DNA of 64,000 nucleotides from a virus. Below are positions 26,209 through 56,305 of the stretch, one piece after another. The stretch's first letter is position 1; each line of letters begins with the position of its first letter. The stretch lies in the IMG/VR virus record IMGVR_UViG_3300045988_100041; one strand, 5' to 3'. Both the position numbers and the translations under genes were made by a program. The notes under the pieces were generated by a model, which did not search any database, was not told where the DNA came from, and was given only the letters and a program-made list of their open reading frames with translations.

Positions 26209-29200
26209 ATGGCTGGAAATATTGATAAGGTTCAACTACAGGTAGAGGTCGTTCGCAATCAGCTCGACACGCTGATTAAGGACGTAAACAACCTGAAAAG
26301 CCAGAAGCTTTCCATCACGGTAGATTCTACCGGCATGGACGCAATCAACAAATTCAATGCGTCTATGCGGACGCTGACGCAGAATGCGGACGGATTGGGC
26401 GGAAAGTTCACGCAGGTTTGGAACGGCATTGCAGAGGGCGCGCCGGTTCGGACGATTGAGACGGTCAATCAGGGGATTGGAAGAACGACCGAGATCATCC
26501 GGACGCTGAACGAGGAAACGCAGTCGTATTCTGAGGTTCAGACAAAGACGACAACCAACTATGACGCGATTGCAAAAGCCGCGCAGAAGGCGGCAGAAGC
26601 CAACCAGAAGGCGTTTTCTGCGGCGCAGAAGGGGATGCCGACGCTTCAAAAGCAGTTTGCAGATCTGGAACGGCAGATTGGAAGCGCGGTAAGCAAATAT
26701 CCAAGCGGAACATTTGACAAGCTTTCCGGAGAGGTCAAGGGCGCAAGGGCAACTCTTGCTACGCTGGACAGCGATCTTGCAGAGGGGAAAATCGGATACG
26801 AAGCGTATACGAGCGGTGTAGACAGTGCGAAGGCGAGTCTCAAGGAGCTTCAAAGCGAGTTTTCCCAGACGCAGACCGACACAGAAAAGCTCAAAAACTC
26901 CACGAACGTGCTTGGAGACAGCCTTGGCAATATCGTAAAGAAAATCGTTGCATGGCAGGTTATCAACGCCTCGGTTGCAACGGTCATTCGGTCGTTCCGG
27001 GAAGCGGTAAAGACCATGAAAGAGGTCGACACGGAGCTGACCGCCATTCAGAAGGTCACGAACAACACCGACGCGGAGATGGAAAAGCTCAGCCAGCACG
27101 CCTATGAGGTCGCTTCGCAGTATGGCGTGGCGGTGACGGACTATTTGGAATCGACGGGAACGTTCGCAAAAGCCGGCTACAAAGAACTGTCGGAAGACAT
27201 GGCGGAGCTTGCAACAAAGACGCAGCTGGTCGGTGATGTGAACGCGGAGACGGCAAATCAGTTCCTTCTTGCTGCGGACGCAGCGTTCAAGATGAAGGGC
27301 AATGTCACGGAGCTGTCCACAGTTCTCGATAAAGCCAACGTCATTGAGAACAAATACGCAACGTCCATCGAGAAGATTTCAGAGGGATTCCCAATCGTTG
27401 CAAATGTGGCGTCGATGGCGAATATGTCCATTGACCAGCTGATGGCGATGCTCGGAACGATCACGGCTGTGACCCAGGAGTCAGGCACCAAAGCCGCGAC
27501 CGCTGCTCGCGCTCTCATCTTGAATATTATGGGAGATACCGAGACGGAGCTTGAAAACGGCGTTACATGGACGAAGGATGAAATCGAAAGTCTGACGCAG
27601 GTTCTTTGGACGTATTCCGAGGAAGCCATGAAAGCGGCGCAGGCAACTGGAACCATCGTAAACCCGATGGAAGCGGTAGCGGGACTTGCAAAGGCGTATA
27701 AAGAGGGCGTTCTGACGCAGGCAGAGCTTGCGAAAATCGAGTCTGACCTCGGCGGCAAGCTGCGGACGAACCAGTTGGACGCGCTCATCAAGAACTTTGA
27801 CATGTATAGCGATATGCTGGACAAAGTCAAGGATTCTGCCGGCAGCGCCGATCAGGAAGTCAGCATTATGCTCACGAGCTGGGAGAGCAAGGCAAATATC
27901 CTACAGAATACGTGGACGGAGTTCATCTCCAAGACAATCGACACGAGCTGGGCAAAGGGGAGTCTCGATGCGGTCACATGGCTGATTGAGGGGTTCGGCG
28001 ATCTAGGCACTGCAATTACGATTTTCGGCGGTGCGCTTGCTACGGTAAAGTGGAACGAAATCACAACTGGATTTGGAACACTGAAATCTGTTATTTCGGC
28101 TCTCCCAATGCTATTCAGCAAGGCAAAGGGCGGCGCGGAAGGATTCAACAACGGCATGAAGTCGATGAATCTGACGCTCACCAGCACGCAGCTGATTGTT
28201 GGCAGCGTGGTTGCGGTTATTTCGGCGCTTACCATCGCTTATAACCACTACAAGCAGAAGCAGGAAGAATCGTGGAAGGCGTCGATTGAAGCCGGAAATG
28301 CAGCAGTGGAGGAAGCAAGGTCTCTTGAAGAACTCTACGGCGCGTATCAGGGCGCAGACAAGGCAATTTCCGACGGAACAGGCTCTAAAAAGGAATTTGA
28401 ATCTGCAACCTACGATTTACTGAATGCAATCGGATATGAAACGACCGCGCTTGACGAGCAGATCACGCGGTACGGTTCTCTCAAGGCGGCAATCGATGCG
28501 AATAAGGGCGCTGTCACAGAGCTTTTGCAGGCAAAAATCGAGTCTGCGCTATATGACGCGAAAGCGGGCGTAACGGCGGCAGGAGAGCAGCTGAGCAGCG
28601 CAAGCGGAAAAGTCGGACTTGCGGCAGGTTCCAGCGCTGGAACGGTTCTCGATTATTATAACGACCTGGTTCGCCGCAGAAACGAGATGCTGGACAGCGG
28701 AGACGAAGGCACATACCTGTATAAGGAAATTGCAGACAAAATCTCAACGCTTACACCGCTTGTCGAGGAATACAATGCGGCGCTTGAGAACCAGACGTAT
28801 CTTGAAAACCTTGCGGAAGACGCGAAGGACGGCGTGATTGAGAGCTATGAGCGGGAAAACGAGGCGATTTCCGACAACACGGACGCGCTGGATGAGAACG
28901 CGGATGCGGCTTCGAAAAACGCAGAAAAAATAGCGGAAGCAGCAAAAACGCTCAAGCAGCAGGAATCAGACCTTCGGACGGTATCGAAGGCGCTTGCGGA
29001 GTATCAGGCAACTGGACGTATTTCCTCGGCAACGATGAAGTCCTTGCTTGGAATCAGCAGCCAATATATTAACCTTCTGACGGACGAAAACGGAAAGCTC
29101 CGGATGACGGAAGATGGGCTTCGCGGCGTTGCAGAGGCGATCATGGCAGACGTGGATGCAACGGAAGATCTTGTTGGCATCACGAAATCGTCCAGCGGAG

Positions 29201-31221
29201 CGATGGACAGCTTTGTTGCAGGACTGATTGACGCGGCAAAGCAGGCAGGCGCGACAGACAGCGAAATCAACAGCCTTGTTGCGCGCATGATTATCTTCAA
29301 TAACACGGGGCTTGATGTGCGCGGGAAAATCGCCGCATTGCAGGCGCTTGCTTTGCAGGCAGGCGTTACAAACTCCGCCATCGCCGGAATCAGCCTGGAT
29401 GCCATCGGTAAAGACGCCGGAATGACGGTTGCGGATGCGCAGAAGAAATACGGCATGCCTTTAAAGGAGGCAGAGCGGTATGTGGCAAGCCAGAAGAAAA
29501 AGGCGCAGAACAACGATCAGGCGCTTTTGGACTACTGGAACACGCTGGCAGACAAAATTCCAGAGCCGAGCGGAACAAGCTCCGGCGGAGGCGGCGGAGG
29601 ACGCGCTTCTGACGAGATACTTGATTCGCACAAGGAAAGAGTATCGCTTCTTAAATCCGAGCTTACACTCATGGAAAAGCAAGGGGCAAGCGAGGAAGAT
29701 CAGAAGAACAAGATGCGGCAGATCCAGCAGGCGCTTCACGCGCAGGCGGAGTATCTTCGTTCCATTGGCGCAAGTCAGGCGGATATTAACGGACTTTCCG
29801 CAGAATGGTGGGAATGGCAGGAGAAGATCAACGGAGAGCTTAAAAGCGCGGACGATCTTCTGAGCGAGCTGAAAAGCGCATTGCAGGAGTCCTTAGACCG
29901 GCAGTCGGATGCGCTGGATGATGAAATCGCGGCAATCGACGCGCAGATCGAGGCGCTGAAAAAGCGCAAGGAGTCGAAAGACGAAGAGCTGACGCTGGAA
30001 GAGAAGATTCTCGCAGTGCAGCAGGCGCAGAAAAATCTTGCAGACGCGCAGAATGAGCGGACAATCCGGCAGTATAACGCAAGAGCCGGTCAGTGGGAAT
30101 GGGTCGCAGACCAGAAGGAAATCAAGTCGGCAGAGGATGCACTCGACAAGGCGAAAGATGACTTGGAGGACTACAGGGAAAAACTCCAATACAACGCAGA
30201 ACTGGCGGCTTTGGAAGCGCGGAAGGACGCAATCAAAGCCCAGCAGGACGCACTTGACCGGCAGTATAAAAATTTCCTCAACTCCCTCAAGGAAAAGACG
30301 CGCGGCATCGGGGAGATCCTACAGGACATCTGGAAGAACGCAACGCCGGAACTCAAGGCAATCATCTTAGAAAACGCAGAGCTATTCAGGGCGCTTGGCG
30401 TGGATGTGACGAAGCTTGCAGACAGCATCGTAGCGGCATCGAACCGGATTGTGAAGGTTGGAGCGGACGGAAAGGCACCGTCCGGGCTTGCCGTTGGAGA
30501 CAGAGTTGTTACAGGCGGCGGCACTTACGAAATTACAGGCGTCAATCCGGACGGAACGTATGAATCGAAGCTTGTTGATAAGAATCAGACAACCTACAAC
30601 TATACCGGAGGGTATGACAATGCGCCGGGCGGCGGTTCGGGTGGTTCAGGTTCTGGCGGCGGCTCTGGCGGAGGCGGCGGAAACCGATACAGCGGAACCG
30701 TGTATGCAGAGCCGGACGACGGAAAGGGCGGATACTACAAAATTTCCAGCGCGAACGGTCTGAACTTTTTGAACAACGCCGGCGCAGGAGACACGATGCG
30801 AGGCGGAGACGGGTCTTATTGGGTGAAGAACCGGAACGGCACGACATCGATCACGGACGGATACGGACGGAAATTCACGGTATATGACGAGGGCGGTATC
30901 CTTCGGGGGCTTGGCGGTATCAAGGCGACGAGCGCGGACGAGATGGTTTTGCCGCCGGAGATCACAAAGAAGATGCTCGCGCCGATGGCAGACGCGCGGT
31001 TTGAGCAGAGAATCCGGGAGCTGGGTCTTTTGTACGGGGCGAGAAACGATATGCCGCTTGCAGGTGGGGCAAGGTTTGACAACCATGCAATCGGCACGCA
31101 GCACAACGGAAATGTGTATCGGCTCGGCGGAATTTCCATCAGCGAGGGAAAGGCAAGAACGACAAGCGTATATGAGCTTGCGCGGATGGCGCAGACGCTC
31201 ACCATTTCAAGCGGCTCCTGA
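26209..31221 (+). CDS. Tail tape measure protein
   Basis: 1670 aa. Long coiled-coil stretches, hydrophobic segments, and Gly-rich linkers (GGGGGGRASD, GGGSGGSGSGGGSGGGGGN). Confidence 0.85.
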   Translation: MAGNIDKVQLQVEVVRNQLDTLIKDVNNLKSQKLSITVDSTGMDAINKFNASMRTLTQNADGLGGKFTQVWNGIAEGAPVRTIETVNQGIGRTTEIIRTLNEETQSYSEVQTKTTTNYDAIAKAAQKAAEANQKAFSAAQKGMPTLQKQFADLERQIGSAVSKYPSGTFDKLSGEVKGARATLATLDSDLAEGKIGYEAYTSGVDSAKASLKELQSEFSQTQTDTEKLKNSTNVLGDSLGNIVKKIVAWQVINASVATVIRSFREAVKTMKEVDTELTAIQKVTNNTDAEMEKLSQHAYEVASQYGVAVTDYLESTGTFAKAGYKELSEDMAELATKTQLVGDVNAETANQFLLAADAAFKMKGNVTELSTVLDKANVIENKYATSIEKISEGFPIVANVASMANMSIDQLMAMLGTITAVTQESGTKAATAARALILNIMGDTETELENGVTWTKDEIESLTQVLWTYSEEAMKAAQATGTIVNPMEAVAGLAKAYKEGVLTQAELAKIESDLGGKLRTNQLDALIKNFDMYSDMLDKVKDSAGSADQEVSIMLTSWESKANILQNTWTEFISKTIDTSWAKGSLDAVTWLIEGFGDLGTAITIFGGALATVKWNEITTGFGTLKSVISALPMLFSKAKGGAEGFNNGMKSMNLTLTSTQLIVGSVVAVISALTIAYNHYKQKQEESWKASIEAGNAAVEEARSLEELYGAYQGADKAISDGTGSKKEFESATYDLLNAIGYETTALDEQITRYGSLKAAIDANKGAVTELLQAKIESALYDAKAGVTAAGEQLSSASGKVGLAAGSSAGTVLDYYNDLVRRRNEMLDSGDEGTYLYKEIADKISTLTPLVEEYNAALENQTYLENLAEDAKDGVIESYERENEAISDNTDALDENADAASKNAEKIAEAAKTLKQQESDLRTVSKALAEYQATGRISSATMKSLLGISSQYINLLTDENGKLRMTEDGLRGVAEAIMADVDATEDLVGITKSSSGAMDSFVAGLIDAAKQAGATDSEINSLVARMIIFNNTGLDVRGKIAALQALALQAGVTNSAIAGISLDAIGKDAGMTVADAQKKYGMPLKEAERYVASQKKKAQNNDQALLDYWNTLADKIPEPSGTSSGGGGGGRASDEILDSHKERVSLLKSELTLMEKQGASEEDQKNKMRQIQQALHAQAEYLRSIGASQADINGLSAEWWEWQEKINGELKSADDLLSELKSALQESLDRQSDALDDEIAAIDAQIEALKKRKESKDEELTLEEKILAVQQAQKNLADAQNERTIRQYNARAGQWEWVADQKEIKSAEDALDKAKDDLEDYREKLQYNAELAALEARKDAIKAQQDALDRQYKNFLNSLKEKTRGIGEILQDIWKNATPELKAIILENAELFRALGVDVTKLADSIVAASNRIVKVGADGKAPSGLAVGDRVVTGGGTYEITGVNPDGTYESKLVDKNQTTYNYTGGYDNAPGGGSGGSGSGGGSGGGGGNRYSGTVYAEPDDGKGGYYKISSANGLNFLNNAGAGDTMRGGDGSYWVKNRNGTTSITDGYGRKFTVYDEGGILRGLGGIKATSADEMVLPPEITKKMLAPMADARFEQRIRELGLLYGARNDMPLAGGARFDNHAIGTQHNGNVYRLGGISISEGKARTTSVYELARMAQTLTISSGS

Positions 31222-36547: not shown

Positions 36548-36775
36548 ATGAACAACAAATGGTGGCAGGTGCTGATTTCGAATCTTTTCAAGGTGAAGTC
36601 GCTCGTGACGATCATGCTGACATCGGCTTTCGTTGCGATGTCTTTGCGTGGGAAGGTTGAGCCGAAGGATTTCTATTCCATCATTGTGATGGTCCTGACG
36701 TTCTATTTCGGCTATCAGAGCGCGAAAACGGAAGACCAGACGGGAGGTGGCAGCGATGGCAAAGCTGGTAATTGA
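36548..36775 (+). CDS. Holin-like two-TM protein
   Basis: 75 aa with two TM segments and a charged C-tail. Overlaps the endolysin start. Confidence 0.5.
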   Translation: MNNKWWQVLISNLFKVKSLVTIMLTSAFVAMSLRGKVEPKDFYSIIVMVLTFYFGYQSAKTEDQTGGGSDGKAGN

Positions 36776-37439
36776 CAAAAGCATTCGGGCAAGCAGAATT
36801 GGCGGCAAGCGCCCTGTTTCGGCAGTTAAGGCAATCGTATTCCATTACACGGCGAACACTGGGAAAAGCGCGACTGCGAAGGGAAATGCCAGGTATTTTG
36901 CCGCAGGAAGCGAAGGACGCGCCGCCAGCGCCCATTACTGTGTTGACGAGGGTAACGTAGTATATGAGTGCGTTCCGCTCGATACGGTGGCGTGGAGCGT
37001 CGGAGACGGGAAGTCCGGAAAGTACGGAAGCCTATACAGCAACTACAACACAGTCTCCATCGAGATGGTCAGCCACACAGACGCATCAGGGACGTATTAC
37101 ATCCCGGAAAAGACGATGGAAAACGCGGCAAGGCTGTATCAGATGCTTTTGCCGCAGCTGCCGAACGTTCAGGCGGCAATCCGGCACTATGATGTGAGCG
37201 GAAAGCTGTGTCCGCTGCCGCTGATTAACGAGGAAAAATGGGAGAAGTTCCAGAAGCTTTTGAAGGAGGTAGATGAAGTGGTTGAAAAGAGCAAGATCAT
37301 TGTAGACGGAAAGGAAGTTGCCGTTGATCGGATTTTGAAGGACGGCACAAACTATGTAAAGGTACGCGATATTGCGGCGGCGCTCGATCTCAAGGTATCG
37401 AACAAGGGAAATATCGCGGTGCTTGAAACGAAGAAGTAA
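36756..37439 (+). CDS. Endolysin: N-acetylmuramoyl-L-alanine amidase (amidase_2/PGRP-type) with C-terminal wall-binding-like domain
   Basis: IVFHYTANTG...ASAHYCVD...WSVGD...IEMV...HYDVSGKLCP are amidase_2 hallmarks. The C-terminal DGKEVAVDRILKDGTNYVKVRDIAAALDLKV resembles copper-amine-oxidase-N-like repeats. Confidence 0.85.
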   Translation: MAKLVIDKSIRASRIGGKRPVSAVKAIVFHYTANTGKSATAKGNARYFAAGSEGRAASAHYCVDEGNVVYECVPLDTVAWSVGDGKSGKYGSLYSNYNTVSIEMVSHTDASGTYYIPEKTMENAARLYQMLLPQLPNVQAAIRHYDVSGKLCPLPLINEEKWEKFQKLLKEVDEVVEKSKIIVDGKEVAVDRILKDGTNYVKVRDIAAALDLKVSNKGNIAVLETKK

Positions 37440-38365: not shown

Positions 38366-38394
38366 ATTCTACCGGGAATTTTCAGTTGTCCCGC
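38366..38394 (-). promoter_or_regulatory. GCGGGACA-N15-TAGAAT promoter-like box (copy a)
   Basis: - strand reads GCGGGACAACTGAAAATTCCCGGTAGAAT. It overlaps the 3' end of the desulfurase gene and lies ~45 nt upstream of the 38319 start. Confidence 0.45.
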
Positions 38395-39491
38395 TTTGCG
38401 GAAAGATTTTTCAGTTCTTTCACACACTGCGCAGTGATTTTCACTGCTTCATCGATCTTGGCAAAGTCTTTTTCCTGTTCGGCTCCGAATCTTGGCTGAT
38501 ATTCGTCCATCGGAAGCCGGAGCGTATAGTCAAAAGAAAACCGGACGGCGCTTCGGGCGCGTTCTTCCTGGTATCCAGCGGCAAGCAGGACTCTCGACGG
38601 CTTATTGTCTCCGCTGGAACACGCCGCACCGCCAGACACCATGACATTCTCAGAAGAAAGTCTCAGGACAAGGGCGGTATTTTCAACGCCTGGGAACGAG
38701 ATATTTGCGATATAGGGAGACTGCGAAGATTTGTTTCCTTCGTAGACGCTGCCGTTTAATTTTGCGTCCGGGATCTCGTTCATCATACCATCAATGAGCC
38801 GGTCGTGCAAGCGGCCTGCCATTTCTGCAAACTCCGCAAGATGCTGTGTCCGGAACCAGAGCGCCTGAGAAAACGCCGCAGCGAGTGCGACAGAAGGGGT
38901 TGCGAAATGTTCCAGTTCATAGATGCTTTCCGGATCTTTTGCAATCAGAACACCGATGCCGACGGGCGCGCCGAATTTATGGCCGCCGCCTGCAATGTAG
39001 TCGATTCCGTCCGACTTGTAATTGAGCTGGAATTTTCCCATGGCTGCGGTGCAGTCGGAAAAGCATACATTCCACGCGCCTGTGTTTTCTAGGTCGTAAA
39101 TGAATCCGGTTTCGTTGCAGGTGTGGATATGCGCAAGAGCGGCTTCTTTTTTGCGGGACCTGCTGTGAATCTTACCGTAATCGGGAAGTCTTTTATAGAC
39201 TGCGTCGTGTTCGTAGGAAGAACAAAGCGCGTCTCGATAATCGTTCAGGAGGCGAAGCGCTGCAAGGCGGCAGCTTTCGGTGGCGCTGGATGTGAAGATG
39301 ACCTGCTCCGGTTCGCAGTTTATGCACGCTGCGACGATTTTTTTCTGTTCCTGCAAAAAGGCGTTGTTTCTTGTCCCGCTTGCGTGGATGCTGTTTGGAT
39401 TCCCGACTTCACCACGGCATACCCTTGCAAATTCGCGCATGGATGAGGAAAGCACCGGCGATGTGGCTGCGTAGTCGAGGTAGATCAGCAT
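38382..39491 (-). CDS. Class V aminotransferase / cysteine desulfurase (NifS/IscS-like)
   Basis: 369 aa. IYLDYAATSP N-terminus, PLP-lysine motif GGHKFGAPVGIG, active-site loop SGGAACSSG, and His in SSYEHDAV. Confidence 0.85.
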   Translation of the reverse strand: MLIYLDYAATSPVLSSSMREFARVCRGEVGNPNSIHASGTRNNAFLQEQKKIVAACINCEPEQVIFTSSATESCRLAALRLLNDYRDALCSSYEHDAVYKRLPDYGKIHSRSRKKEAALAHIHTCNETGFIYDLENTGAWNVCFSDCTAAMGKFQLNYKSDGIDYIAGGGHKFGAPVGIGVLIAKDPESIYELEHFATPSVALAAAFSQALWFRTQHLAEFAEMAGRLHDRLIDGMMNEIPDAKLNGSVYEGNKSSQSPYIANISFPGVENTALVLRLSSENVMVSGGAACSSGDNKPSRVLLAAGYQEERARSAVRFSFDYTLRLPMDEYQPRFGAEQEKDFAKIDEAVKITAQCVKELKNLSAKRDN

Positions 39492-40000
39492 GGCGCGGTC
39501 CCTCCGAAGTTTGGAACGAAGGAAGAAAGAAGCTGATGATAGAACTTATTTTGCGCCTGCAGCTCAATGCACCGCTCTTTCAGCGAGGATAGTTCTGCGT
39601 CCGGTTCTTTGGAAACGGGAAGCACGCCGGAAGGCCCCGGATTTTTGGGTTCATTTGCGCCGCTCAGACCGATGGACACCAGAAGGGCGCTGTCTACGAG
39701 CTGCATTTCATGCTGCTCCAAGGTCGAGATATAGCTTCCAAGGCGTTCTTTGCTGACGGTATAGATGTTTTCACACAGGACGGTATTTTTCACGCCTTTC
39801 ATTGTGATTTCCACGTGCGTCGGAAGGGGCTTTTTCTTCTCTGCGGTCGTTAAGTAGCAGATCTCTATGTTCGGAGAAAATAGGTTATTTTTCTCGTTTG
39901 AAACGACAACGGCAGGTCTTGACTTGCGAATTTCACTTCCAAGCCCGTCTTTCCAGTTATCTACCCAGAAAATATCGCCGCGATGGATGCTACGTTCCAT
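39485..40000 (-). CDS. MazF/PemK-family endoribonuclease-like protein with ~60-aa C-terminal extension
   Basis: RGDIFWVD...RKSRPAVVVSN...CYLTT...THVEI...VLCENIYTVSKERL matches the PemK fold pattern. An extra coiled-coil tail (ELSSLKERCIELQAQNKFYHQLL) follows. The stop overlaps the desulfurase start (ATGCTGA). Confidence 0.7.
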   Translation of the reverse strand: MERSIHRGDIFWVDNWKDGLGSEIRKSRPAVVVSNEKNNLFSPNIEICYLTTAEKKKPLPTHVEITMKGVKNTVLCENIYTVSKERLGSYISTLEQHEMQLVDSALLVSIGLSGANEPKNPGPSGVLPVSKEPDAELSSLKERCIELQAQNKFYHQLLSSFVPNFGGTAPC

Positions 40001-40101
40001 TTCTTTCGTCCTTTCTTTCACATTTTTCTATGTACGGCGGCACGTCCGCACGATATGCCGCCTATTCAGTTTAATTGCGTTTGAACTGAATATTGAGGGT
40101 G

Positions 40102-40374
40102 TTATCTCACTGCGTCTTTCAGCGCCTTTGCGGGGCTGAAACGAACGACGAAGTGCTGGGGAACGTCGATGGTTTTGCCGGTATTCGGATTTCTCGACTG
40201 CTTGCTGGCGCAGTATTTCGCGGCGAATTTGCCGAAGCCCGGAACGTTCACGGTGTCATGCACGATGAGCGCTTCCTGCACCGCATCGAACACGGCATTT
40301 ACTGCGCAGATCGCCTGCGTCTTCGGAACGTCCATCCGGTTCGCTACGGCGGTTACGAGTTCGTCTTTGTTCAT
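40102..40374 (-). CDS. hup: HU/IHF-family DNA-binding protein
   Basis: 90 aa. MNKDELV...GFGKF...R.GRNP.TG..I-like pattern (SKQSRNPNTGKTIDVPQHFVVRFSPAKALKDAV). GGAGG RBS. Confidence 0.85.
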   Translation of the reverse strand: MNKDELVTAVANRMDVPKTQAICAVNAVFDAVQEALIVHDTVNVPGFGKFAAKYCASKQSRNPNTGKTIDVPQHFVVRFSPAKALKDAVR

Positions 40375-40401
40375 GATTTTCCTCCTTTCCCGAAAATTTC
40401 A

Positions 40402-40477
40402 TGGTGAGCCGTCCCGGAGTCGAACCGAGATTTTACCAGTTATGAGCTGGTCGCTCTAGCCTTTGAGATAACGGCCC
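40402..40477 (-). tRNA. tRNA-Met/Ile2 (anticodon CAT), CCA encoded
   Basis: Reverse complement folds as a cloverleaf: GGGCCGT / ACGGCTC acceptor, ACCAG-CTCATAA-CTGGT anticodon arm, CTCGG-TTCGACT-CCGGG T arm, ACCA end. No initiator features. Confidence 0.85.
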
Positions 40478-40853
40478 ATCGATTCCGGCTTGACGTACCG
40501 GCCGCGAGGTCTTGTGCACAGACCAACGGCAAATCAGGTGATTGCACACCGTCTCCACCTTGTTATCCTCATGATGGACGATCTGAGTGGGGAGTTCCCA
40601 TTTCGCTTGTTTACTCCCAAACTTCGCTATCGGCTATATCAACCCGACGACACCGCTGCCAGATGCGGAGGTTTCATTCCATCGGGGGAAGTCATCCGAT
40701 GGCGGGCATGGGCGGCTTGGCAGAATCGAACTGCCTCGGGTCAGTTGCTCGTCGCTTCCCTTTACCAAATGCCGCGTGTTGCCACACTGACGCAGTGGCC
40801 GCGGAGGGTTGGCTTTATTTATAACGCGCCACGACTCCCACAAGAGGGCGCTT
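40478..40853 (-). ncRNA. Unassigned structured non-coding segment (candidate large ncRNA)
   Basis: 376 nt with no credible ORF, co-oriented with the flanking tRNAs. Contains a T-loop-like hairpin GGCAG-TTCGATT-CTGCC (40719-40735) and helices GGGAGT/ACTCCC (40590-40618) and TGTGCA/TGCACA (40513-40548). Confidence 0.3.
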
Positions 40854-41012
40854 TGGCGGATGCGGCGGGGATTTGAACCCCGCATGGTGCAGACAGTATG
40901 CGACGAGCTTTATTCCCGTCCGAGGTGGCTGCTTGAACCCCAATAGGTTTGAGTGTGCCGCGCTTTCCTGCACCGCATACCCTTGCTACCTTTTCCATTC
41001 GGCCACGCATCC
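40854..41012 (-). ncRNA. 159-nt tRNA-like RNA: acceptor/T-arm minihelix with a ~120-nt non-tRNA insert, GCCA 3' end
   Basis: - strand: GGATGCG (41006-41012) pairs with CGCATCC (40858-40864). T arm GCGGGG-TTCAAAT-CCCCGC, discriminator G, CCA encoded. The interior has competing helices GTATGCG/CGCATAC and GGTGCAG/CTGCACC, and I found no anticodon arm. Confidence 0.45.
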
Positions 41013-41021
41013 ATATTTTGC

Positions 41022-41345
41022 TCAGATTTTTGCGGTACAGCGGTATTTGCAGGTTTTCCAGTCCGCGAGGCTGCACGACTCGAAGATGCAGGGTGATCCG
41101 GCGTACTCCGGCTTGTCGCAGAATTCGTGGATCAGCTCCGGATACAGGGCGTTCATTGCAAAAAGGTTTCTTGCCGAATCCGGCCCGACAAACATCGGCT
41201 TTCCTTTCGGTGCGTAGTCACGGATCTGATAGGGGATTTCGTCCCGTTCGCTGTAGAAATGGACCGCGACCGGCGTCACGTCCTTCTCTACGACGACGTA
41301 GACATTTTTCGTGCCGTTGGTGAGATAGCGAATGTCCAAGCTCAT
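41022..41345 (-). CDS. Hypothetical 107-aa protein embedded in the RNA island (C-terminal Cys cluster)
   Basis: Strong RBS AAGGAGGAAAACAAATG. MSLDIRYLTNGTKNVYVVVEKD...CDKPEYAGSPCIFESCSLADWKTCKYRC. Confidence 0.6.
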   Translation of the reverse strand: MSLDIRYLTNGTKNVYVVVEKDVTPVAVHFYSERDEIPYQIRDYAPKGKPMFVGPDSARNLFAMNALYPELIHEFCDKPEYAGSPCIFESCSLADWKTCKYRCTAKI

Positions 41346-41713
41346 TTGTTTTCCTCCTTGCTTTGTTTTCTTGGTTTTGTACAGCCTGCCTCCCGGCTCC
41401 GGAGCCGCCGTTACTCGACGCCTAGACGCTCCCGTGCAGAAGTTGGTCTGCGTCGCCACGCCGGTTTTTCTTCCATCCTTTACGCCTCACAGCGGACTGT
41501 CGGAAGGCCGGGAGGGTAAGCCACGGAACTTTTCAGCCCTGCGCCGGTGCATCGGTCGCATCCGTTTTTTCACACATTAAGCCGGAGCCAGCTAATTAAA
41601 TTCGCAATCTGTCGTACTTGCACTACCTACAGATTGAGCGGATGGCCGGATATATCGTTTCACCAAGCCTTTGGAACCTCAAAACTTTCCCTGAGTCCGC
41701 CGCAATACCCATG
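41346..41713 (-). other. 368-nt GC-rich leader/non-coding segment between tRNA-Gly and the 41345 CDS
   Basis: No credible ORF; many local helices (e.g. GGCTCCGGAGCC at ~41394-41405). Function unknown. Confidence 0.3.
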
Positions 41714-41787
41714 TGGAGTGCGTGAGGAGAATCGAACTCCCACCATCAGATTGGAAGTCTGATGTTCTGCCATTAAACTACACGCAC
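41714..41787 (-). tRNA. tRNA-Gly (anticodon TCC), copy 1
   Basis: GTGCGTG/CACGCAC acceptor, TCAGA-CTTCCAA-TCTGA anticodon arm, GGGAG-TTCGATT-CTCCT T arm, U73, CCA encoded. Confidence 0.85.
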
Positions 41788-41794
41788 ATAAATG

Positions 41795-41916
41795 GCTCCC
41801 CGTTTTACTCCGGTGCGGGAGCGTTCTTCCCGAAAACCCATAGCCAGGCTTCCCAGCTTGGAGCACCGGAATCTCTGAAATGTTCCGGTGAGCGCCTTCG
41901 CTTACATGGGTGACGC
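41795..41916. ncRNA. Repeated structured element X, copy 1 (122 nt)
   Basis: ~84% identical to 42126..42239. Shared helices carry compensatory changes; details are in the findings. Strand unresolved. Confidence 0.5.
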
Positions 41917-41927
41917 TTTAAAGAGTA

Positions 41928-42001
41928 TGGAGCGGCATACGGGAGTTGAACCCGCGTTTTCAGATTGGAAGTCTGACGTGCTTCCGCTGCACCAATGCCG
42001 C
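41928..42001 (-). tRNA. tRNA-Gly (anticodon TCC), copy 2
   Basis: GCGGCAT/ATGCCGC acceptor, anticodon arm identical to copy 1, GCGGG-TTCAACT-CCCGT T arm, U73, CCA encoded. Only ~60% identical to copy 1 outside the anticodon arm. Confidence 0.85.
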
Positions 42002-42125
42002 ATAAGGCGCGCATAGGATGGAAGAGGTACAAGACCATCCCATGCACTTCCGGTCTTTCCCGGCTGCCAGAACAATCCCTATGGAGGGGCAGGCGGGAGG
42101 CTCGTGAACCACTGCCTGCATAGAA

Positions 42126-42239
42126 GCTCCCCATTTTACTTGGGTGCGGGAGCGCTCCTACCCAAAACCAACAGCCAAGCTTCCCATCTTGGAGCGCCGG
42201 ACGATTCCGGCGAGCGCCTGCGCTTACGTTGGCGGTCGC
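42126..42239. ncRNA. Repeated structured element X, copy 2 (114 nt)
   Basis: Paralog of 41795..41916, with a shortened hairpin loop and compensated stem positions. Confidence 0.5.
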
Positions 42240-42300
42240 TTTTCTGCACAGAAAGGAGACATTACGCCTCGCCGCAGCAGCACAGAAGGGAGCTGCGGCA

Positions 42301-42371
42301 TGGTGGGAAAATGCGGAATTGAACCGCAGCATGAAGGCTTTATGTTCCTCCCTAGCGCACCTGCTTTTCCC
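42301..42371 (-). ncRNA. 71-nt tRNA-like minihelix RNA or attP-type tRNA remnant next to the integrase
   Basis: - strand: GGGAAAA...TGCGG-TTCAATT-CCGCA-TTTTCCC-A-CCA gives a perfect acceptor and T arm. There is no canonical D arm or anticodon arm. Confidence 0.4.
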
Positions 42372-42400
42372 GCATGGCGTGACGGGTCACGCCTTGTTTT

Positions 42401-43501
42401 CTATGCGATCTCCGACCGGCTTTTTTTGACGGTAGGCTGCGGCCGGAGGTTTGAGAAAAAATCATCGCCCTGCATTTCAAGATACCGCTTGTTGCGGTCT
42501 GCCTGACGGTCTTTTTCTTCCTGCACAAGAAGCGTCTGGCGGCGTTTCCTGCGGCTGGTGAGTTTGCCGGAATAGATCTGCGTGACTTCTGCCGATTCAT
42601 GCCCGAGCTTTGCTTGCAGTTCTTCCAGAGGCATGCCGCCGTTGAGATCGAGCCGCGCGCCGACGTGCCGCAGGTCGTGGGACCGGACATTATCTACACC
42701 TGTCACGCGCTTTACATGGCGGCGGACAAGCTCTGTCAGCCATTGACGGCTGCCGGCGTGCCAGGATTCTGCGTTGAAGTTTCTGGACGTTCTGACTTTT
42801 TCTGCGCAGGTTCCAAAGAGCGGGTCATCGTCTTTTGCATAGGAAGGGCGGATGCCGCTTTTAAGATAGAGCCTTACGGCGGTCTGCGCGATGGGCGGGA
42901 AGTCTACAACGCGGTATTTGTTGCCCTTGCCGTGCTCTACGGTCAGCTCTTCGTTTTCCCAGTCCAAGTCGGCAGGCGTGAGGGCGAGAAGTTCGCAGTT
43001 TCTGATCTCTGTGGACAGAAACAGGACGGCGATTGCATAGTTTCGCTCCCATTCCGGAACGCCGCTTGATTTTGGGGAGTTGTTCCGCCACAAAAGTGCC
43101 GCCTGTTCGTCGGTCAGAATCTGGTCATAGGGTCTTGCATCTTCCTGACGGGTGTCCGGCATGAGGAATTTGGAGACGGGGTTTTTGTCATAAAAGCGGT
43201 AGTCTCCAAGCTGGGGAGACGAGGCGTATTCATAAAATCCGGAAAGAACTTTCAGATACTGCTTGACGGTGGACGGTTTTCTGCCGGTTGCAAGCAGCAT
43301 ATCACGCCACGCCTGAATGTCTGTGAAGGATACCTCGTGGTTCCAGTTGTCCCGATCTTCAATCATAAAGAGGCTGAACAGTTTTATCACGTTGTCGATA
43401 TTTTCAACCGTATTTTCTGAGCGCCCGATGGCGATCATGTTTGAACGGTAGGAACGGTAGGCTTCCATGAACTTCTTTTCTTCCTTGATGGGCGGTGCCA
43501 T
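42401..43501 (-). CDS. int: Tyrosine recombinase / phage integrase
   Basis: 366 aa. N-terminal SAM-like core-binding region, and a C-terminal catalytic pattern ...R...HDLRHVGA...LGHESAEVTQIYSG (R-H-R-H/Y). Confidence 0.9.
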   Translation of the reverse strand: MAPPIKEEKKFMEAYRSYRSNMIAIGRSENTVENIDNVIKLFSLFMIEDRDNWNHEVSFTDIQAWRDMLLATGRKPSTVKQYLKVLSGFYEYASSPQLGDYRFYDKNPVSKFLMPDTRQEDARPYDQILTDEQAALLWRNNSPKSSGVPEWERNYAIAVLFLSTEIRNCELLALTPADLDWENEELTVEHGKGNKYRVVDFPPIAQTAVRLYLKSGIRPSYAKDDDPLFGTCAEKVRTSRNFNAESWHAGSRQWLTELVRRHVKRVTGVDNVRSHDLRHVGARLDLNGGMPLEELQAKLGHESAEVTQIYSGKLTSRRKRRQTLLVQEEKDRQADRNKRYLEMQGDDFFSNLRPQPTVKKSRSEIA

Positions 43502-56214: not shown

Positions 56215-56305
56215 TACCGGCCGCCCCGGACACCCTAGCAGAGCCGCACCGGGCACCAAAGCGGCCCCGCCCCATCAAATAAAACGAAAAAGGAGATCAT
56301 CACCA

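Follow-up and report, generated by a model that had tools for sequence, protein, structure and literature searches.

A 2-kb island of a human-gut phage, at positions 40402-42400 of the 64-kb DNA of IMG/VR record IMGVR_UViG_3300045988_100041 (the window), contains three tRNAs along with two tRNA look-alikes and at least three non-coding, folded RNAs. Among the latter is a complex-folded RNA of about 335 nt, which we call RNA-B. It represents a widespread family in human-gut phages, always starts directly behind an NCCA that ends a tRNA or tRNA-like unit, and belongs to a class that is absent from Rfam (Rfam 15 models). At least three covariation-supported RNA families in the island are absent from Rfam, namely RNA-B, module A (present in two copies), and module C. 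We consider it likely that the island is a phage "stable-RNA operon", in which co-oriented tRNAs and tRNA-like units separate structured RNAs and one small gene. The structural and distribution claims made here for the island are very likely to hold, and any specific function of RNA-B is a guess.

Distribution and conservation of RNA-B

A BLAST comparison with 50,697 phage records found non-tRNA sequence in common with only two unannotated human-fecal phage contigs, and the match was a sharp 85-nt block (window 41603-41515). The exact 43-nt pattern of the RNA-B core is present in at least 117 IMG/VR contigs and the pattern of its helix Hb in at least 120, and a relaxed core pattern was found in at least 119 metagenome contigs, mostly from ENA assemblies, of which the descriptively named ones are from human gut. 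Many of these metagenome contigs are 40-110 kb long, and some have very high coverage. Only 3 of 185,579 species-representative genomes contain the core, all of them gut Oscillospiraceae, Oscillibacter or Eubacteriales metagenome-assembled genomes, and the hosts of RNA-B phages are probably Oscillospiraceae. In total, we collected 259 copies, of which 202 are distinct. The core sequence was found in no paper of the literature searched.

An independent search anchored on Hb recovered 124 copies with near-identical cores, which vary by GAAA to GUAA, by a few single-base substitutions, and by 1-nt indels; the exceptions are three copies without about 20 nt of the 3' half of the core. The extreme conservation of the core is therefore real. 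RNA-B does not encode a protein. No reading frame is open across the element on either strand in 27 representatives; in many of them, every frame is interrupted by a stop at most about 60 codons away from the core. This agrees with an earlier note on this DNA, which saw no credible coding frame in about 1.6 kb of the region. Clustering of open reading frames (ORFs) had returned apparent ORF families inside RNA-B on both strands, which the frame analysis identified as artefacts of conserved GC-rich sequence.

Secondary and tertiary structure of RNA-B

The consensus fold obtained with RNAalifold from 26 representatives, which are about 40% identical outside the core, comprises hairpins Hb, Hc, and Hd and a three-way-junction core with a GAAA hairpin (Table 1). 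Across 38 of its pairs, 98.4% of the alignment cells are paired and 12 pairs (82 cells) have changed on both sides, compared with 30-50% paired and at most three pairs changed on both sides in a control in which the 3' partners were slid by 1-3 columns. A long closing stem, which extends from after the core to before the 3' tail and closes a second domain, falls into 17 sequence classes, and its native duplexes have a mean energy of -30.7 kcal/mol, compared with -19.5 kcal/mol when partners were swapped between sequences. The tetraloop of the core is GAAA and varies only to GUAA, which is still a GNRA loop. Given the abundance of G-U pairs, RNA-B can be assigned to the strand of the tRNAs.

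Tertiary structure provides the strongest individual line of evidence for RNA-B, in the form of a loop-loop pseudoknot in which 4 nt of the Hb loop pair with 4 nt of the core hairpin loop. Two of the pairs covary, so that GUAU in Hb faces AUAC in the core in about 65 distinct sequences, GUAC faces GUAC in about 45, and GUGC faces GCAC in about 30; the pairing is without exception among about 160 distinct sequences. A mutual-information scan for more long-range pairs returned only this loop-loop pair as convincing, the rest being noise from alignment or phylogeny. A T-box-like pairing was considered as well, between the upstream NCCA and a conserved UGG-N that follows the core; it was rejected, as the N, inspected by eye, does not covary with the discriminator base.

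The CCA junction and the neighbors of RNA-B

Among 204 distinct copies, the unit directly 5' of RNA-B is a canonical tRNA in 64, with 14 different anticodons, and a T-arm plus CCA unit rejected by ARAGORN in 119; the remaining 21 end in NCCA as judged by eye. Many of the rejected units share acceptor, D, and T arms (GCAGACG...CGUCUGC-A-CCA), and their anticodon arms differ wildly between phages. The conserved feature at the border of RNA-B is thus "tRNA-ness" and not one particular tRNA, as would be expected if tRNA-processing enzymes set the ends of RNA-B. Such tRNA-like units were also noted individually at 2820-2909 of phage locus L001, at 2823-2904 of L002, and in L120, L121, L011, and L079, with anticodon arms that are often non-canonical (8-9-nt loops, long inserts).

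On the downstream side, about 35 of the first 120 loci have a tRNA (Gly or Gln) at +179 to +233, which begins within a few tens of nt past the 3' tail. In phages of the window type, RNA-B ends about 33 nt before the ATG of an ORF for a 107-aa protein. RNA-B adjoins an integrase in the window, and in about 40 other phages (e.g., L016, L063, L110, and L116) it stands directly upstream of putative terminase/portal ORFs, whose identities as small and large terminase and portal come from reading the translations. In L002-type phages, RNA-B is followed by a conserved GC-rich block (…CGCCCAAUAUGGGCGGCGUUGUAGCCCUUCGGGGCGGGUA…; L002 3085-3300 and relatives), which may be another structured RNA module.

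Modules A and C

The earlier note had described a duplicated element of about 120 nt with compensated helices. It is indeed a direct repeat, here called module A, with 84-86% identity between the copies, an indel in one hairpin loop, and covariation across the family. Its motif occurs in 32 IMG/VR contigs, and in the fold that 15 distinct sequences support, helices P1-P4 meet in a four-way junction, P4 is capped by a GNRA loop, and P5 is a further hairpin. Of the cells in its 31 pairs, 98.5% are paired, compared with 32-42% with slid partners, and 9 pairs have changed on both sides, compared with 0-3. Copy 1 of module A, segment X, and tRNA-Gly1 are near-private to this phage, segment X being present in 2-4 and tRNA-Gly1 in 6 of 318 loci. 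Together, the three look like a recent local duplication or insertion.

Module C was recognized by an exact 33-mer in 50 IMG/VR contigs. Three of the 18 pairs in its alignment are compensatory, one in each of three hairpins, and in a third phage group its first hairpin is swapped for an unrelated stem at the same place.

The non-tRNA segments are hence not the unconserved spacer that the earlier note had allowed for, since RNA-B and modules A and C are conserved with compensatory changes in homologs. At the nucleotide level, identity across one set of relatives is 85-94% for the RNA segments and 73-75% for the integrase and the 107-aa ORF. With this conservation and the covariation seen in three segments (module A, RNA-B, and module C), the features of the island exceed chance.

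tRNAs and tRNA-like units

The ARAGORN calls for the window comprise exactly three tRNA genes, each of them within the island and on the minus strand. They are the tRNA-Met and the two tRNA-Gly(UCC) already read from the sequence in the earlier note, and their Rfam scores are 51-72 bits. A tRNA was counted as canonical on the basis of a cloverleaf, a 7-nt anticodon loop, an ARAGORN call, and an RF00005 score above threshold, all of which were found for each of the three. The start codon of HU is 27 nt downstream of tRNA-Met.

The two CCA-ending minihelices proposed earlier are present, ending near 40854 and 40709, but they are not free-standing and constitute the T-arm/acceptor ends of two tRNA-like units, T1 and T2. 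In T1, the acceptor stem is 7 bp long (GGAUGCG/CGCAUCC), U8 is present, the loop of the D arm contains GG, the variable loop has 5 nt, the T arm has the loop UUCAAAU, and the end is G73-CCA; a three-way junction of 74-90 nt replaces the anticodon loop. T1 was found in 23 IMG/VR contigs; homologs are 92-97% identical with sharp boundaries at GGAUGCG and NCCA, and the relatives have A73 where the window has G73. ARAGORN recognizes T1, as a tRNA-Gly(gcc) whose intron has 74 nt, only when introns are allowed and the threshold is lowered to 85%, which also yields false calls, and Rfam returns a weak tRNA-Sec match of 18.9 bits.

In the T2 region, the unit itself comprises an acceptor stem and the T arm GGCAG-UUCGAUU-CUGCC, ends in ...CCCA, and received no ARAGORN call at the default threshold. 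The 5' end of the region resembles tRNA-Gly1 (repeat). In phage L001, a genuine tRNA-Gly(tcc) occupies the position of T2, directly upstream of module C, and its last 28 nt or so (T arm, 3' acceptor strand, and CCA) lie inside the BLAST match that runs into module C. T2 is a degenerate tRNA.

With these units placed, the two blocks of 376 and 368 nt that the earlier note had left unexplained turn out to be conserved structured RNA, but not single RNAs. The 368-nt block consists of the RNA-B of about 335 nt plus an ORF leader, and the other of T2, module C, and a conserved tRNA-Met leader.

Searches against known RNA families

The 4,227 covariance models of Rfam 15 were run on the whole window at the gathering threshold and on 40000-42800 at E ≤ 10. 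Together with ARAGORN, these were among the checks that the earlier note had suggested; nothing but tRNA scored above threshold over the island, and at E ≤ 10 the other matches were at chance level only. Related loci, 17 at the gathering score and 16 more at E ≤ 10, likewise gave only tRNA and chance matches. The GOLLD and ROOL models had no match at E ≤ 10 (40000-42800; 16 loci) or at the gathering score (17 loci). RNase P, raiA, HEARO, T-box, riboswitches, self-cleaving ribozymes, and group I/II introns had no Rfam match over the island at E ≤ 10, and none of these classes recurs over RNA-B in related loci. No transfer-messenger RNA (tmRNA) was found by ARAGORN at the default or 90% threshold, and Rfam gave only a 17-nt, 10-bit beta_tmRNA fragment match.

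Organization of the island

The stretch 41022-41345 is a real gene and the sole conserved protein gene in the island. Homologs of its 107-aa product form 45 clusters with 58-95% identity; four cysteines (C76, C86, C91, and C99) are invariant, and no Pfam or PHROG family matches. An AlphaFold2 model has a predicted local distance difference test score (pLDDT) of 78, with the N-terminal beta/alpha part confidently modelled, and a comparison with the PDB gave no fold match (best E = 0.76). The claim of a single small ORF, co-oriented with the flanks, was borne out: the remaining ORFs of 40402-42400 overlap tRNA genes or structured RNA, and one that was tested (41805-42332) had no PHROG match.

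A consensus scan found no sigma-70-like promoter on the minus strand between 43362 and 38464, and the terminator-like hairpins on the minus strand inside the island are weak only, two of them being helix P4 of module A, in agreement with the earlier note, which saw no promoter or terminator between the island and the genes from HU to the desulfurase. The orientation of the genes and this lack of signals suggest co-transcription. Between the integrase stop and module A copy 1 lies a non-coding leader, whose predicted folding has a minimum free energy (MFE) z of -3.3 against mononucleotide shuffles. A GC-rich hairpin in it (42376-42393), just past the integrase stop, scores as a terminator on the plus strand only, where TTGTTTTCT comes next, and could therefore block antisense transcription entering the RNA island.

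Table 1 Features of the island and elements of RNA-B (positions in the window)
Feature	Position	Strand	Basis or detail
tRNA-Met(CAU), encoded CCA	40402-40477	minus	ARAGORN; Rfam tRNA 51.4 bits
tRNA-Met leader, conserved, three predicted hairpins	40478-40588	minus	about 87% identity in about 30 loci; single-sequence folding
Module C, about 120-nt RNA, four hairpins	40589-40708	minus	begins right after T2 CCA
T2 region: two hairpins (40776-40853), then 67-nt, degenerate tRNA-like unit (40709-40775)	40709-40853	minus	89-94% identity in 33-35 loci
T1, 159-nt tRNA-like RNA	40854-41012	minus	MFE fold; homologs with sharp ends
Gene for 107-aa protein	41022-41345	minus	ribosome-binding site (RBS) AGGAGG at 41353-41358, 7 nt upstream
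RNA-B, about 335-nt complex-folded RNA	41379-41713	minus	conservation from first base past upstream CCA to invariant (C/U)UGU
RNA-B tail, CAGGCUGUAC	41379-41388	minus	
RNA-B closing stem, 3' strand	41389-41410	minus	
RNA-B hairpin Hd	41416-41456	minus	
RNA-B invariant GAGGCG	41483-41488	minus	
RNA-B closing stem, 5' strand	41490-41516	minus	
RNA-B three-way-junction core	41523-41565	minus	hairpin loop AUGCAC 41547-41552; GAAA tetraloop hairpin 41528-41537
RNA-B hairpin Hc	41580-41593	minus	
RNA-B hairpin Hb	41608-41633	minus	loop GUGCAAG 41617-41623
RNA-B variable 5' domain	41634-41713	minus	
tRNA-Gly(UCC) copy 2 (tRNA-Gly2), encoded CCA	41714-41787	minus	ARAGORN; Rfam tRNA 71.5 bits; RNA-B begins at next base
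Module A copy 2, ending 7 nt before tRNA-Gly2	41795-41912	minus	repeat; covariation
tRNA-Gly(UCC) copy 1 (tRNA-Gly1), encoded CCA	41928-42001	minus	ARAGORN; Rfam tRNA 68.8 bits
Segment X, GC-rich, predicted-structured spacer up to tRNA-Gly1 5' end	42002-42125	minus	MFE z = -3.75
Module A copy 1, about 110-nt RNA, four-way junction P1-P4 and hairpin P5	42126-42234	minus	direct repeat; covariation
Non-coding leader, integrase stop to module A copy 1	42235-42400	minus	about 75% identity in about 41 related loci

The operon model and its alternatives

We propose that the tRNAs and tRNA-like units separate at least three unrelated RNAs (module A twice, RNA-B, and module C) and the 107-aa gene within a single precursor, which would be transcribed leftward. 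The host tRNA-processing machinery would cut this precursor at the tRNAs and tRNA-like units, with RNase P acting at the 5' ends and 3'-end maturation enzymes at the CCA ends. Cutting would release the structured RNAs as discrete stable molecules, together with mRNAs of the 107-aa protein and HU, and the units whose anticodon arms are degenerate or replaced would be handles for processing, or scaffolds, and not decoders. We regard this processing scheme as plausible and lean toward it. As for a role of RNA-B, our tentative guess, by analogy with GOLLD and ROOL, for which such a role is suspected and which share its genomic niche, is that it acts in trans as a stable RNA (a protein- or RNA-binding scaffold or decoy) on the host translation or tRNA machinery in infection, in which case the near-invariant core would be a binding or active site.

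Several points weigh against the operon model and against our description of RNA-B. The RNA ends, co-transcription, and processing are all inferred from sequence. tRNAs with an encoded CCA are poor substrates of RNase Z, and the CCAs here are encoded; this disfavors RNase Z and makes it harder to explain how RNA-B would obtain its exact 5' end. Covariation has no hold on the core helices, which do not vary, the alignment is poor in the 5' domain and the junction strands, and the secondary structure is partial. The sequences were gathered by exact-match patterns, which biases the collection toward conserved cores, and the independent Hb-anchored search removed this bias only in part. No conserved protein partner of RNA-B was found. 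Parts of the family, and fragments of the other modules, may be listed in a catalogue of 8,495 unnamed candidate structured RNAs from IMG/VR (Fremin et al., PMC10690425). Lastly, RNA-B directly precedes the 107-aa ORF in phages of the window type, and a cis role in these phages is possible.

Unlikely in our judgment is that RNA-B is a new functional RNA class with chemistry or binding tied to tRNA 3' ends. RNA-B could then be a ribozyme that cuts between NCCA and the following nucleotide, or it could form the core of a particle by which tRNAs are captured or protected. The T1-type units would in that case be "tRNA scaffolds" or decoys of natural origin, which gut phages would use against tRNA-targeting nucleases of the host.

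It is quite improbable that RNA-B is a cis-acting leader (riboswitch or attenuator) of the downstream gene, here the 107-aa ORF. The short distance to the ATG in window-type phages, with a strong RBS in between, would suit such a leader, and a conserved core with a pseudoknot is typical of aptamers. The downstream neighbor varies, however, being this ORF, tRNA-Gly or tRNA-Gln (about 35 loci), an RNA module (L002 type), or a terminase or methylase, so a cis leader is unlikely as a general explanation. Nor does a conserved expression platform (a terminator or RBS-sequestering helix) follow the 3' tail, and no riboswitch model matches.

We give little credence to the proposal that RNA-B is a self-processing ribozyme, which would cut the precursor right after NCCA and free the 3' end of the upstream tRNA without host enzymes. 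Its start right after NCCA, whatever the upstream tRNA, the ultra-conserved core with a tertiary pseudoknot, and the poor suitability of CCA-encoding precursors as RNase Z substrates all speak for it. Yet the first nucleotides after the CCA are unconserved, RNA-B is far larger than known self-cleaving ribozymes, and no ribozyme model matches.

That the conserved blocks act as DNA, either as attP beside the integrase or as pac/cos beside the terminase, is very unlikely. The island does adjoin the integrase, RNA-B does stand just upstream of a putative terminase/portal in about 40 other phages, and tRNA 3' ends are frequent in phage attP sites. Against this, many helix G-U pairs would be A-C mismatches on the other strand, the loop-loop pseudoknot covaries, and the strand relative to the tRNA and the NCCA junction are fixed. 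Moreover, the 3' ends of T1 (in its G73 and any-N73 forms), tRNA-Gly2, and tRNA-Met were found in 0 of 185,579 species genomes, so none copies a host attB, and the attP reading of the tRNA-like ends was rejected.

That RNA-B is a very divergent GOLLD or ROOL missed by the Rfam models is hardly credible: it shares their niche in phages, beside or between tRNAs, but neither model matched in the island or in 33 diverse loci (E ≤ 10 for the island and 16 loci, gathering score for 17). At about 335 nt, RNA-B is also shorter than ROOL, which averages 581 nt, and than GOLLD, which often exceeds 800 nt (PMC5737381, PMC12286853). The earlier note's alternative of "something new" is what fits.

Decay of a tRNA array into pseudo-tRNAs and spacer without a function of its own is very unlikely as an account of all the non-tRNA segments. 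T2 is degenerate and its position is held by a real tRNA-Gly in L001, many neighboring tRNA-like units are non-canonical, and segment X and tRNA-Gly1 look like a recent private duplication; the idea fits T2 and perhaps segment X. It is contradicted for RNA-B and modules A and C, which have no tRNA-like sequence, are better conserved than the protein genes, and show compensatory changes across hundreds of contigs.

Comparison with known systems

Few large complex-folded bacterial or phage RNAs are known (GOLLD, ROOL, OLE, raiA, and HEARO), and each has led to studies of new RNA biochemistry or architecture. A further candidate is RNA-B, which is abundant in the human gut virome and lends itself to study, being compact at about 335 nt, with an almost invariant core, a covariation-proven pseudoknot, and a strict junction with tRNA CCA ends. 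ROOL and GOLLD are Rfam families, reportedly described by Weinberg et al. in 2009 and 2017. Both occur in phages and prophages, "often near tRNA islands", with function unassigned (PMC5737381, PMC12286853), they form homo-oligomeric cages as seen by cryo-electron microscopy (PMC12286853), and ROOL is described as having few invariant nucleotides (PMC5737381). The two are large non-coding RNAs with complex folds that have no obligatory protein partner and typically lie beside or within tRNA islands, a niche that RNA-B shares, and the conserved 3' and variable 5' parts of GOLLD resemble the conserved domain and variable periphery of RNA-B. Set beside the ROOL architecture, the elements identified in RNA-B are a single three-way junction, a single 3' domain of several helices, and a single loop-loop pseudoknot. 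It also shares the context of GOLLD, in phages or prophages and near tRNAs, which alone does not establish membership. RNA-B differs from both in lacking any detectable sequence or structure match, in having about half the length of ROOL and a much more conserved core sequence, and in its 5' end, which is fixed at NCCA.

RNAC and RNAD of phage T4 ("species 1/2") are encoded in a tRNA cluster and matured together with the tRNAs. These small stable phage RNAs still have no assigned function (PMC9697503). They have no sequence relation to RNA-B, are about 120-140 nt long, and come from a lytic phage of a Gram-negative host.

In animal mitochondria and in MALAT1-mascRNA, tRNA structures between RNAs are cleavage signals for RNase P and RNase Z that set the ends. 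The strict junction of NCCA with RNA-B and the flanking tRNAs fit the logic of such punctuation; it is, however, not established in bacteria or phages for large non-coding RNAs, and here the encoded CCA disfavors RNase Z. The island suggests a design that may be general among these phages: a single transcript would give rise to various unrelated stable RNAs, as well as some mRNAs, and would be cut at tRNAs and their look-alikes. If true, this would change the annotation of phage "tRNA islands".

An artificial tRNA scaffold is said to stabilize RNAs in E. coli (Ponchon and Dardel, 2007). T1 resembles that engineered scaffold in keeping the acceptor, D, and T arms and the CCA with a foreign RNA in the place of the anticodon loop, and it resembles tmRNA in joining a tRNA-like acceptor/T-arm module to a large insert. 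As to differences, T1 is natural and only 159 nt long, lacks a tag reading frame or pseudoknot series, and was negative in the ARAGORN search for tmRNA.

Flanking genes and other observations

Pfam confirmed the neighbors that the earlier note had named, as a tyrosine integrase (42401-43501) on one side of the island and HU (40102-40374), a PemK/MazF-like protein (39485-40021), and a class-V aminotransferase (38382-39491) on the other. The PemK/MazF-type endoribonuclease and the cysteine-desulfurase-like class-V aminotransferase thus lie, with HU, directly downstream of the island (38382-40374); the former could bear on RNA cleavage and the latter on tRNA thiolation. Large ORFs at about 5-37 kb are mostly on the plus strand, including one of 1670 aa (26209-31221), and an ORF with an Amidase_2 domain is present at 36747-37439. 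This ORF layout, together with the integrase, suggests that the window is a phage or prophage genome. Outside the island, a RAGATH-5 RNA, the sole ribozyme-type match in the window, scored above the Rfam gathering score at 56226-56281 on the plus strand (54.2 bits; threshold 50).

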